Assembly: GCA_963704365.1 (NCBI GenBank) | Contig: OY969899.1 | Location: 1,009,806 to 1,073,805, forward strand | DNA length: 64,000 nt | Reading direction: 5' to 3' | Origin: Parachlamydiales bacterium | Lineage (GTDB): Bacteria; Chlamydiota; Chlamydiia; Chlamydiales; JAJFMK01 | In this document: positions 23,047-25,860 of the stretch, piece after piece | How the letters are laid out: each line of letters begins with the position of its first letter | Numbering within the stretch: position 1 is the first letter of the stretch | Notes under the pieces: model-generated | What the model was told of the DNA's origin: nothing | What the model saw: only the letters and a program-made list of their open reading frames with translations | The model's database searches: none | Made by a program: the position numbers and the translations under genes

Positions 23047-25860
23047 ATGATTTGTCTAACGTCTCTTCTTCCACAAAACGCCTATCTTCTTAGGGCGTCT
23101 TTAAATCAAATAGCCGATTGGAGCGAAAAAGGCACACTCCAATCCTCCCTCACAGCTCGATCCGCTGCCATTGCTATGCCTGCTTTAGCAATATTGCAAG
23201 TTCCCTTTTATGCAGTCCAAGGGATAACAGGGTCTTTATACCATGCTTCTAACGGAGAATTTAAAGAGGGGCTTTTAAAACTTCTCTATGATGCTGGCCA
23301 CATTGTTCAATCTTTAGCTTTTGCAGTTGTCGCAGTCGTTTGGACGGTTTCTGGTCTGTTTCTCGGTTCAATCACTCTCACTTTATTCAGAACTGACATC
23401 CAACGTCCGGTAGACCCCACTACAAGGGCAGCACAACTTTCGGAAGAAGTCCAAAATTTGCAACAGCAGTTAATACAAGCACAAACTTCACAAGAAGCCC
23501 TTCTTCGAGCACACCGAGAGGCCTTAACAAGGTTAGAAAGGAATGATACAGACGTTCGCGATTTAATCAATCTTGCTATAGAGGTTGACAATCAGGCCGA
23601 AGTTTTGGGTCAACAGCATCAGGCTGAGATCCATCTTAATACCTCTCTTACAACCCAACTCACAAGTTTAACAGAAAATCATCGGGTTGTTGTTGCTGAA
23701 CGAGATGCTCTTAGCCAAAAAGTTGAAACTTTAACAACCCAGCTCCAATTGGCAACTAAACAAGCTGAAAGCCTTAGTGTCCAAGTGGAAGGTTTAGAAG
23801 TTACTAAACATGCCTTAAGGGAAGAGATTGTCCATTTGCAGTGTCAAATTCAAGAAAGGAAAGAAGACTACGCGGAACTTAAATCCAAATACAGCGCTGT
23901 AAACGAACAACTACTGCAAAAAAACGTCGAAATTGGACAACTAAAAGGAGCTTTAGAAGAAGCGACGGCTAGTTATCAAGACCTTCTTCTCCAAGCAAAA
24001 TCGTTCGAAAGAAAAAGCCAAGAAGAACAAGATGCCTTTGTTGAACGTCTTAAAACAGATGGCGCGCAAATTGAAAAACTCGAAAAGAGTGTTCAAGAAC
24101 TTCTTCAGTCACAGGCAAAACTGAATAAAGAGCTACTCGATACTCTAGGCATTGTCCTTGTGGATCTCAACGAGAGTGGACATACAGGCTCTCCAGGCCC
24201 TGGAGGCTATCAAATTTTCGAGGAACTATTAACTAAATTAGTTCCTGGGAATGAAGAAAGCAAACCTATTTGGTCGATCCAAGTTGTTGGAGGCGGCATT
24301 ATAGTTAACACCACACCTGTTCCGGCGCTTGATCCTTTTACCGGATCTGTCCTCACATTCATGCTAGTGAAGGGTTACGAAAGACTCCAAAGTGGAAAAC
24401 TCAAACAAGAAAAATTCCAAGCACTGGTCGATTCAGTAGAAAAAATATTAAATCAATTCTCTCCTACTCAAACTGAACTCGAATACCAAACGCTTAGAGA
24501 GACGATTGCAACTTTCAAAAATTTTGATTTTAGCCATCAGATCAGTTTAAATTCTGACCTCTCTCTAAAATCTCTTCTACAACTCGTTCTGGGGCAATCT
24601 ACCGAAACCACCATTCGTCATCCTTATATGAGAGGTAGCATCGTAGTCGAGCAACTAGGACGTCAATTTGGAGCAAGTATTGTCCATGCAGTCGCTGGCT
24701 ATTATTCTCTCGACCAAGGGAATTTGTGGAATGAGAGGGAAATTGCCATGCTCATCGTTGGGATTGCAGCTAATCTCGATCTCGAAGGGGCAAAACAGTA
24801 TCTACAGACCGACGATGAAGAGATGATAATAGATGGTATGGCCACCTTCAGAAAGTCGACTCTTGCTTTTACCAAAAACTTCACTTTAGTCCCTTCTGCA
24901 CTGCAAGATAAACAATTGATGAAAGACACCCAATTGTTAGATTCCCTACTAAAAGTGGGCACTGTTGACACAACAATATCAACTGCTTTAGGAATTTCTG
25001 ATGCAGCTGCAGCCCGACTTGCATGTATTGAATACTTATGTAGAGATCTTGTTTATTCGCTATTTGATCCAGCATTCTCTTATCACAACTTAGAAGGCGG
25101 CGGTGTGACAAAGTTCAAAGAGAATATGCTGGTCACCGTTGCTGGGTTAGGAGCTAAATCCAGATTGTATCAAATTAATACCCTTGTCAGAGAAGGTGGT
25201 GTATATGGTGTCCATCTTCTTCCTGTCACTCCAGGAGCTGATGATGAAGGGATTGTCCTTTTCCGAGGGACATTTGACACAGCCTCTATTTGCCGTGATA
25301 TTGCTCCTTGGGAAAAAGACTCCTTGGAATTTGGCATCGGAGGGCCTGGTGCCCGTTCGTTTAATAGCCTTCGTCCCCGTATTCTGAATAATTGGCAAGA
25401 GCAACAAGCCAACCTAGGGATAAAAAAATGGGTAGGAATCGGCCATAGTCTAGGTGGAAGCGATATTGCACGCTTTATGTCAGCCGTTGTTGAAAGGGGG
25501 GATCTGCCAGAGGGTACCGAAAAAATGGAAATTTTCACTTTCAATGCTCCACACGTTGAAAGGAATACGAAAACCTCTTTCATTGAAGGGATTAAACGTT
25601 ACCCCAATTGTCGCTTCTCAGTTACCCATTTGGAAGGAGAGGGAGATTATGTCCCCTTGGCCGGGATCACAAGAATTGCTGGGGATAAATCTTCTAGTCC
25701 AAACCTGATTCCTGATACGATCATCTTTGCTCAGCCAGAGGCAGCTAAAAAAGGACCTTATGAAGCCCATACCTCCTATTGGCTCTCAAACGGCGGCGAT
25801 TCTACCTTGTCTCCACTCACCTTAAAACGGCTTGAAGGAATAGTATCGATACTGGGTTAA
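23047..25860 (+). CDS. Inc-like membrane anchor + long coiled coil + C-terminal alpha/beta-hydrolase (lipase class 3-like) protein
   Basis: 937 aa. Two hydrophobic segments fall within the first 115 aa or so. Heptad-rich Q/E/L region at about residues 125-360. GHSLGG nucleophile elbow at 25441-25458. Confidence 0.8.
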   Translation: MICLTSLLPQNAYLLRASLNQIADWSEKGTLQSSLTARSAAIAMPALAILQVPFYAVQGITGSLYHASNGEFKEGLLKLLYDAGHIVQSLAFAVVAVVWTVSGLFLGSITLTLFRTDIQRPVDPTTRAAQLSEEVQNLQQQLIQAQTSQEALLRAHREALTRLERNDTDVRDLINLAIEVDNQAEVLGQQHQAEIHLNTSLTTQLTSLTENHRVVVAERDALSQKVETLTTQLQLATKQAESLSVQVEGLEVTKHALREEIVHLQCQIQERKEDYAELKSKYSAVNEQLLQKNVEIGQLKGALEEATASYQDLLLQAKSFERKSQEEQDAFVERLKTDGAQIEKLEKSVQELLQSQAKLNKELLDTLGIVLVDLNESGHTGSPGPGGYQIFEELLTKLVPGNEESKPIWSIQVVGGGIIVNTTPVPALDPFTGSVLTFMLVKGYERLQSGKLKQEKFQALVDSVEKILNQFSPTQTELEYQTLRETIATFKNFDFSHQISLNSDLSLKSLLQLVLGQSTETTIRHPYMRGSIVVEQLGRQFGASIVHAVAGYYSLDQGNLWNEREIAMLIVGIAANLDLEGAKQYLQTDDEEMIIDGMATFRKSTLAFTKNFTLVPSALQDKQLMKDTQLLDSLLKVGTVDTTISTALGISDAAAARLACIEYLCRDLVYSLFDPAFSYHNLEGGGVTKFKENMLVTVAGLGAKSRLYQINTLVREGGVYGVHLLPVTPGADDEGIVLFRGTFDTASICRDIAPWEKDSLEFGIGGPGARSFNSLRPRILNNWQEQQANLGIKKWVGIGHSLGGSDIARFMSAVVERGDLPEGTEKMEIFTFNAPHVERNTKTSFIEGIKRYPNCRFSVTHLEGEGDYVPLAGITRIAGDKSSSPNLIPDTIIFAQPEAAKKGPYEAHTSYWLSNGGDSTLSPLTLKRLEGIVSILG

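Follow-up and report, generated by a model that had tools for sequence, protein, structure and literature searches.

A candidate class 3-type lipase joined to a coiled-coil stalk and a putative membrane anchor in an uncultured member of the Parachlamydiales

At positions 23047-25860 of a 64,000-nucleotide stretch of DNA from a Parachlamydiales bacterium (assembly GCA_963704365.1, contig OY969899.1, positions 1,009,806 to 1,073,805; the whole stretch is hereafter called the window), the plus strand carries an open reading frame (ORF) that starts with ATG, encodes 937 amino acids (aa) and is closed by a stop codon. The encoded protein joins a hydrophobic N-terminal module, a coiled-coil stalk, a family-specific helical domain and a C-terminal alpha/beta-hydrolase core of the class 3 lipase type. 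Class 3 lipases, Inc-like anchors and an enzyme on the chlamydial inclusion (Cdu1) are all known already, and the protein is a variant on these themes. The source organism is uncultured and represented by metagenome contigs, and the identical protein occurs on nine contigs, one of which is an ENA metagenome contig of 2.6 Mb (ERZ25039480 contig_18258). The gene order at the locus is uvrC-rlmN-lipase gene-small ORF-...-dnaG-...-recD2.

The C-terminal core, from about aa 690 to aa 937 (25114-25857, plus strand), was assigned by profile comparison, by structural comparison with Foldseek and through the Pfam family Lipase_3. Searched against Pfam on its own, the 937-aa protein produces sub-threshold matches to Lipase_3 (E = 0.011) and DUF915 (E = 0.009), both of which fall on the nucleophile elbow. 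Lipase_3 is matched by 36 of 52 relatives, with a best E-value of 1.3e-9, and P0002, P0004 and P0057 carry a precomputed PF01764 annotation. A profile of the lipase region of the family (alignment A4) finds Rhizomucor miehei lipase (9.3e-8), Rhizopus lipase (7.5e-7) and FaeA (1e-5) in the Protein Data Bank (PDB), as well as diacylglycerol lipases and plant phospholipases A1. In the pairing of this profile with 4tgl, vvFRGT is placed against IVFRGS and GHSLGG against the GHSLGG that holds Ser144. AlphaFold2, when supplied with a 52-sequence alignment, gave a model with a predicted local distance difference test score (pLDDT) of 89.1 and a predicted template modelling score of 0.89, versus a pLDDT of 39 in a single-sequence run. 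Foldseek matches in the PDB comprised 2ix9 (FaeA), 5ap9, 6a0w, 1tib and 6qpp, at a probability of 1.00 and E-values of 2e-4 to 1.5e-3; they include lipases of Thermomyces, Rhizopus, Penicillium and Rhizomucor, and sequence identity to the matches is 13-20%.

The residues expected of such an enzyme are in place. An FRGT motif (aa 739-742; 25261-25272, plus strand) aligns its Thr742 with Ser82 of R. miehei lipase, the oxyanion-hole residue of that enzyme; in the 52-sequence alignment F739, R740 and T742 are conserved in at least 90% of the sequences and G741 is invariant. The nucleophile elbow GHSLGG spans aa 799-804 (25441-25458, plus strand), with the codon of Ser801 at 25447-25449, and residues G799, H800, S801, L802 and G803 are invariant across the 52 sequences, as is D806. 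In the model Ser801 lies between a strand (model residues 414-420) and a helix (model residues 422-437), the canonical position for an elbow. The candidate catalytic acid, Asp867 (25645-25647, plus strand), is invariant in alignments A1, A2 and A4 and comes after the model strand 476-484, the next but one strand from the elbow. The candidate catalytic base, His908 (25768-25770, plus strand), is invariant in A1 and conserved in at least 90% of the sequences in A2 and A4. Model confidence reaches 95-98 at Ser801, Asp867 and His908, and the columns of this triad are conserved at a mean column identity of about 13% in the 52-sequence alignment. Conservation of the triad and motifs at such low overall identity is the pattern expected from purifying selection on catalysis.

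These results bear out most of what a preliminary description, made from the sequence alone, had said about the enzyme. It had placed a GHSLGG elbow at 25441-25458, which corresponds exactly to aa 799-804; the 16-aa string that it quoted for these coordinates is longer and spans 25429-25476. It had further named the Asp of GEGDYVPLAG (aa 864-873) and the His of YEAHTSYW (aa 905-912) as candidate triad members, and these are Asp867 and His908. The comparisons that it proposed came out in favour of a lipase, in that the model and Foldseek give a class 3 lipase fold, Ser801, Asp867 and His908 occupy invariant or near-invariant columns, and Lipase_3 and R. miehei lipase are matched by the relatives and by the family profile, respectively. 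Given both the fold and the conserved triad, the domain is therefore a divergent lipase or esterase of the class 3 type, and from the alignments and the model we consider it very probably competent in catalysis.

The core is preceded by an all-helical domain from about aa 430 to aa 672 (24334-25062, plus strand), which corresponds to the helices at model residues 50-292 and for the most part has a pLDDT above 90. This domain of about 250 aa is common to all family members and contains the near-invariant residues Y553, N576, R602, Q623, D627, E662 and Y670; no known match to it was found in Pfam or in a sequence search of the PDB. Using aa 381-937 as query, an exhaustive phmmer search retrieved 54 proteins from 1.84 billion cluster representatives, each standing for a cluster, of which six scored E <1e-30 and the others between 1e-20 and 1e-3. 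Most of these relatives are 550-750 aa long, 52 of the 54 representatives contain GHSLG (P0042 does not), and every named database entry for a family member reads 'hypothetical protein'. The 54 clusters thus form a rare and unnamed family that combines the helical domain with a class 3 lipase core. A word-index homologue search with the whole protein returned only P0001, which is 98% identical, and four proteins when the family alignment was used. A scan of genome contigs with the single protein found no relatives; a six-sequence alignment detected two loci there, and a scan of metagenome contigs gave one locus. Within the 64-kb window, no paralogue of the lipase gene was found.

Between the N-terminal module and the catalytic part lies the coiled-coil stalk (aa 125-368; 23419-24150, plus strand), which is the variable-length spacer of the family. 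The preliminary description had noted a Q/E/L-rich heptad region following the hydrophobic segments, and heptad analysis agrees: a heptad register runs from aa 125 to aa 368, and 64% of the 28-residue windows in aa 121-375 are heptad-like compared with 4% in 200 shuffled sequences, none of which exceeded 19%. The same 255 residues are rich in Q, E and L and include only two prolines and six glycines. The stalk gives weak hits to SMC/Rad50 coiled coils (NCBIfam), and searches with the whole protein, by phmmer against the PDB and against NCBIfam, returned coiled-coil noise only. Measured from a conserved LTxxR motif at the end of the anchor to the start of the C-terminal module, the spacer is 8 aa long in P0005, 94 in P0003, 198 in P0057, 272 in the 937-aa protein and 405 in P0006, and long spacers are coiled-coil-like in every case. 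P0005 and P0006, which mark the ends of this range, are tandem paralogues from a single genome. Anchor and catalytic module are conserved around a spacer that varies; for the catalytic module, identity between close full-length relatives is 28-50%.

The N-terminal module begins with a conserved segment, LPxxAxxLRxxLNxIAxxSEK...AR (aa 1-38; 23047-23160, plus strand), in which P9, A12, L15, L19, N20, A23, S26, E27, A37 and R38 are invariant in a six-sequence alignment (A5). Since conservation in the N-terminal alignment starts at the aligned ATG codons of the relatives, the assigned start codon is supported. By eye, the protein has no obvious signal peptide. The first 23 residues contain no acidic residue, which is weak evidence with regard to type III secretion (T3S), and aa 1-38 might serve as a secretion or chaperone-binding region. 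The two hydrophobic segments quoted in the preliminary description, AAIAMPALAILQVPFYAV and IVQSLAFAVVAVVWTVSGLFLGSITLTLF, were located at aa 40-57 and aa 86-114, respectively, and coincide with two Kyte-Doolittle peaks (19-residue windows). Lobe 1 (aa 39-64; 23161-23238, plus strand) peaks over aa 39-60 with a maximum of 1.67, is marginally hydrophobic and contains an invariant proline, Pro45. Its rough sum on the Hessa biological scale is +5.7 kcal/mol, which argues against an autonomous transmembrane (TM) helix. Lobe 2 (aa 86-114; 23302-23388, plus strand) peaks over aa 79-115 with a maximum of 2.11 and a rough sum of +0.4 kcal/mol, ends in the LTxxR motif and contains the invariant residues F92, W99, S108, L111, T112 and R115 (A5); it is a credible TM helix. 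Between the lobes lie 21-33 aa (25 by feature boundaries). Membrane proteins exported by type III secretion systems are reported to be moderately hydrophobic, and the data permit equally a single-pass anchor, as in Cdu1, or a monotopic hairpin.

The module is kept in P0003, P0005, P0006, P0015 and P0057; among the full-length close relatives it shows 29-44% identity and 19 invariant positions. A local profile of the module, searched in a 57-sequence database, also matches the distant members P0040, P0054 and P0053 (E-values of 2e-7 to 2e-4), and two-lobe N-termini of a like pattern are visible in P0036, P0048 and P0051. The spacing of the lobes differs between members. The published definition of Inc proteins asks either for a hydrophobic domain longer than 40 aa or for a pair of TM segments, each of 20-30 aa, with a small loop in between (PMC3290821). 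In the paralogues P0005 and P0006 the lobes are 9-11 aa apart, in the classical tight bilobed pattern, and both proteins fit this definition well; the 937-aa protein, with its marginal lobe 1 and its wider spacing of 21-33 aa, fits it loosely.

The locus is of chlamydial origin, as synteny with Parachlamydiales metagenome-assembled genomes (MAGs) and flanking proteins of 85-94% identity confirm. Two loci, L007 ('Parachlamydiales bacterium MFD04780.bin.2.176') and L013, are syntenic, and comparison with them sets the lipase protein apart from UvrC, RlmN and DnaG. Relative to the window proteins, amino-acid identity in L007 is 88% for UvrC, 94% for RlmN and 85% for DnaG, versus 40-50% for the lipase protein; the corresponding values in L013 are 86%, 92% and 85%, versus 30-39%. 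A third locus, L008 (Parachlamydiales MAG SW_28, 446-5729), encodes a tandem pair of paralogues, 652 and 1082 aa long, that have the anchor and the catalytic module in common and differ in their spacers (8 and 405 aa); the pair adjoins a gene for a TLC ATP/ADP translocase. The distant member P0048 adjoins UPF0137 and ParA, a pairing reminiscent of chlamydial plasmids. Interrupted copies of the gene were also seen. In the same species, L001 (ENA ERZ25039528 contig_46946) carries uvrC, rlmN, a Sel1 gene and the lipase gene broken into several frames, and the orthologue in L007 (5152-7615) is split into ORFs of 454 and 409 aa, with a near-identical and intact 847-aa copy, P0057, elsewhere. The broken frames in both loci are probably assembly frameshifts and not pseudogenes.

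The gene is separated from the divergently oriented rlmN (minus strand) by an AT-rich intergenic region with sigma-70-like sites (22915-23046). The preliminary description had called this region strikingly AT-rich, and its 132 bp indeed contain 78.8% A+T compared with a window mean of 56%, a content reached by only the top 0.05% of windows of 132 nt. Promoter-like matches in the spacer upstream of the gene lie at 22998-23025 and 23010-23038, and a -10-like hexamer, TATTAT (23033-23038), ends 8 nt ahead of the ATG; its counterparts are TATACT in L007 and TATAAT in L013, in both of which the proximal half of the AT-rich spacer and the position of the ATG are kept. No Shine-Dalgarno sequence was found before the ATG of the lipase gene. 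Given the proximity of the hexamer to the start codon and the absence of a Shine-Dalgarno sequence, the mRNA may be leaderless or nearly so. Downstream, a small ORF of 113 aa (25970-26311, plus strand) encodes a protein with a signal-peptide-like N-terminus and an acidic, Cys-rich tail of low complexity. In L007 and L013, too, it directly follows the lipase gene, with 73% and 70% identity, respectively, over its first 64-75 aa; no copy stands beside the L008 paralogues. The ORF has its own promoter-like site (25913-25942), and the sole strong terminator-like hairpin downstream (26345-26367) lies past it. The small ORF may be co-transcribed with the lipase gene, and may or may not belong to the same unit.

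How might this protein work? The hydrophobic lobes suggest that it is probably membrane-anchored. That it is also exported and faces the host is a more tentative proposal, which we rate as falling somewhat short of even. The reading that the data support best, to which we give even odds as a whole, is that of a membrane-tethered lipolytic effector, most likely exported by the T3S system (T3SS) and inserted, in the fashion of an Inc protein, into a host-facing membrane such as that of the inclusion. The T3SS is reported to be common to all Chlamydiae (PMC6925127). The predicted secretion, membrane topology, location and substrate would then be connected as follows: the anchor (aa 1-115), made up of the N-terminal segment and the two lobes (aa 39-114), would hold the protein in the membrane; the stalk (aa 125-368) would project, and probably oligomerise, to carry the remainder away from the membrane; and the helical domain (~430-672) and the lipase core (~690-937) would together form the catalytic unit. 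In this unit Ser801 (GHSLGG), Asp867 and His908 would cleave the ester bonds of glycerolipids from the host, and Thr742 (FRGT) would lie at the oxyanion hole; the candidate activities are triacylglycerol lipase, diacylglycerol lipase and phospholipase A1. A role in host interaction is favoured by the fast divergence of the protein relative to its flanks, by a stalk that ranges from 8 to 405 aa and by the tandem paralogues in L008.

Several findings weigh against such an effector. Neither T3SS genes nor chaperone genes were found within the 64-kb window, and the 937-aa protein matches no Inc family in Pfam (at E-values up to 10) or NCBIfam. Lobe 1 is marginal by both measures (1.67; +5.7 kcal/mol) and contains prolines. 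The inter-lobe loop of 21-33 aa exceeds the 'small loop' of the Inc definition, and the sequence conservation of the first 38 residues is unusual for a T3S signal. The hydrophobic N-terminus is absent from most distant family members, and the anchor is consequently not intrinsic to the enzyme family. Finally, the protein's own Lipase_3 score of 16.1 bits is below the Pfam cut-off of 22, and it is therefore a divergent relative of Lipase_3 that is recognised at the level of profiles and structure only.

Comparison with known systems places the protein between categories. With the class 3 lipases (PF01764; 4TGL from Rhizomucor miehei, 1LGY from Rhizopus, 1TIB from Thermomyces lanuginosus, the feruloyl esterase FaeA of Aspergillus niger, 2IX9, and the plant phospholipases A1 2YIJ and 7X0D) it shares the fold, the FRG[ST] motif, the GHSLGG elbow and the order and spacing of Ser, Asp and His. 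In contrast to these enzymes, its core comes as one polypeptide with a hydrophobic anchor and a coiled-coil stalk, and the solved class 3 lipases have no counterpart of the helical domain of about 250 aa that precedes the core here. Its likeness to Inc proteins such as IncA consists in chlamydial origin, the lack of an obvious signal peptide, rapid divergence and a two-lobed region about 40 aa from the N-terminus that is followed by a long coiled coil. The anchor and coiled coil are thus arranged in an Inc-like manner, and the protein may itself belong to the Incs; it differs from them in having no sequence match, a weak lobe 1 and an inter-lobe loop of 21-33 aa. Moreover, most Incs have been described as interaction scaffolds, whereas the 937-aa protein ends in an enzyme. 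The preliminary description had considered a lipase displayed from an inclusion-membrane-type anchor an unusual effector architecture. It is less unusual than that, since C. trachomatis has in Cdu1 (ChlaDUB1) an enzyme for which experiments support anchoring in the inclusion membrane and exposure of the active domain to the cytosol (PMC5370187). Cdu1 resembles our protein in its sequence of N-terminal hydrophobic segment, flexible or extended linker and catalytic domain, where the placement of the lipase would be analogous; unlike the lipase protein, it is a 401-aa deubiquitinase and acetyltransferase with a single-pass TM segment and no coiled coil, and the two are not homologous. No description of a chlamydial Inc-type lipase was found in full-text searches of literature outside the subscription journals.

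The same data must be weighed against readings in which the enzyme does not serve the host-facing membrane. The lipase could be a resident of the chlamydial inner membrane, held there by lobe 2 or by both lobes, and act on the bacterium's own or on imported lipids, for instance as a phospholipase A1 that remodels membranes from the cytoplasm or the periplasm. A credible TM lobe 2 next to a weak lobe 1 could well be a membrane anchor of the ordinary N-terminal sort, the N-terminal 38 residues are conserved, and the neighbouring genes uvrC, rlmN and dnaG are housekeeping genes with no secretion genes nearby. However, a resident enzyme would hardly be expected to show 30-50% identity where flanking genes show 85-94%, and its variable stalk and tandem paralogues are typical of host-interaction proteins. 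In addition, only 54 clusters out of 1.84 billion representatives belong to the family, which makes it very rare, and its nearest solved relatives are eukaryotic lipases. We regard a resident, non-effector enzyme as unlikely.

In a second alternative, judged to be about as improbable, the protein is an effector that enters lipid droplets or the endoplasmic reticulum (ER) by means of a monotopic hairpin formed by lobes 1 and 2, and works directly at the neutral-lipid stores of the host. Hairpins of lipid-droplet proteins (class I) have central prolines. The invariant Pro45 in the middle of the short, weak lobe 1 and the invariant Trp99 in lobe 2 are in keeping with this arrangement, the rough Hessa sums do not strongly predict either lobe to span the membrane, the catalytic domain is like those of triacylglycerol and diacylglycerol lipases, and the short-spacer paralogue P0005 would fit. 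Yet the same data fit insertion into the inclusion membrane equally, and a stalk of up to 405 aa suits an enzyme that reaches out from a membrane rather than one that sits on the surface of its own substrate.

Far less probable is a toxin of the Tle or X-Tfe kind, in which the lipase would attack other bacteria and the small ORF at 25970-26311 would encode its periplasmic immunity protein. Lipase_3-domain effectors do feature in reviews of bacteria-killing type IV (T4SS) and type VI (T6SS) secretion systems (PMC6536674, PMC12165300), and they are likewise exported effectors built on a class 3 lipase domain; in L007 and L013, moreover, the lipase gene is followed at once by the small ORF with its signal-peptide-like N-terminus. 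Those toxins differ in that they target rival bacteria, are linked to immunity genes and secretion loci, and have neither anchor nor stalk. The Pfam-scanned ORFs of the window include neither T6SS nor T4SS genes, nor any VgrG, PAAR or Hcp domain, the downstream ORF is missing beside the L008 paralogues and encodes an acidic protein of low complexity, and the organism is an obligate intracellular chlamydia. Tle toxins, furthermore, are not known to have a hydrophobic anchor at the N-terminus or a long coiled coil, which also counts against a toxin. Least plausible of all is a catalytically dead scaffold with the hydrolase fold as a binding module, for which the sub-threshold Pfam score of the single protein might be cited, as Ser, Asp, His, FRGT and GHSLG are invariant or nearly so in 52 sequences of about 13% mean identity. 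We have set aside the pseudoenzyme on account of its conserved motifs, and the interbacterial toxin for want of linkage to secretion or immunity genes, as unlikely.

If the tethered, host-facing effector is the correct reading, what might it be used for? Incs are mostly viewed as non-enzymatic adaptors, and the acquisition of host lipids by environmental chlamydiae is poorly understood. A catalytically intact lipase of the fungal type on a stalk of evolvable length would be a concrete candidate for acquiring lipids or remodelling membranes where host and vacuole meet, in a family that current annotation pipelines leave as 'hypothetical'. In the boldest version, which we put forward with considerable doubt, the protein would be the first lipase-bearing Inc-type effector and its relatives 'lipases on a stick', the stalk acting as a molecular ruler that sets their reach from the vacuole. 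Such enzymes could extend to lipid droplets, the ER or, at contact sites, other organelles and harvest host fatty acids. Should the protein instead stay in the bacterial membrane, the finding would be that of a divergent membrane-bound lipase and of modest interest.

Other genes of the window also deserve mention. A tandem pair of Sel1-repeat paralogues (685 and 620 aa; 15984-18041 and 18187-20049, plus strand) has 28-47% identity to its syntenic copies in L007 and L013 and diverges like the lipase protein; both members are candidates for fast-evolving host-interaction proteins. An ORF of 988 aa (30981-33947, minus strand) lacks a Pfam match and has a single hydrophobic segment, which lies C-terminally (aa 884-908). 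Identity to the syntenic copies, of which L013 holds two in tandem, is 43-45%, and the protein diverges in the same manner. Two adjoining ORFs of 948 and 726 aa (41288-44134 and 44131-46311, minus strand) have neither Pfam matches (E <=0.01) nor hydrophobic segments. A second lipid-active enzyme of the window is a phospholipase D-family protein (37530-38660, plus strand; PLDc_2, E = 2.5e-45). It is hydrophobic near its N-terminus (aa 4-24) and may simply be a housekeeping enzyme resembling cardiolipin synthase. At 47410-52079 (plus strand), an Omp85/POTRA gene of the BamA/TamA-like type is followed by a gene for a TamB-domain protein, and the two look like an outer-membrane assembly pair with ordinary housekeeping functions.

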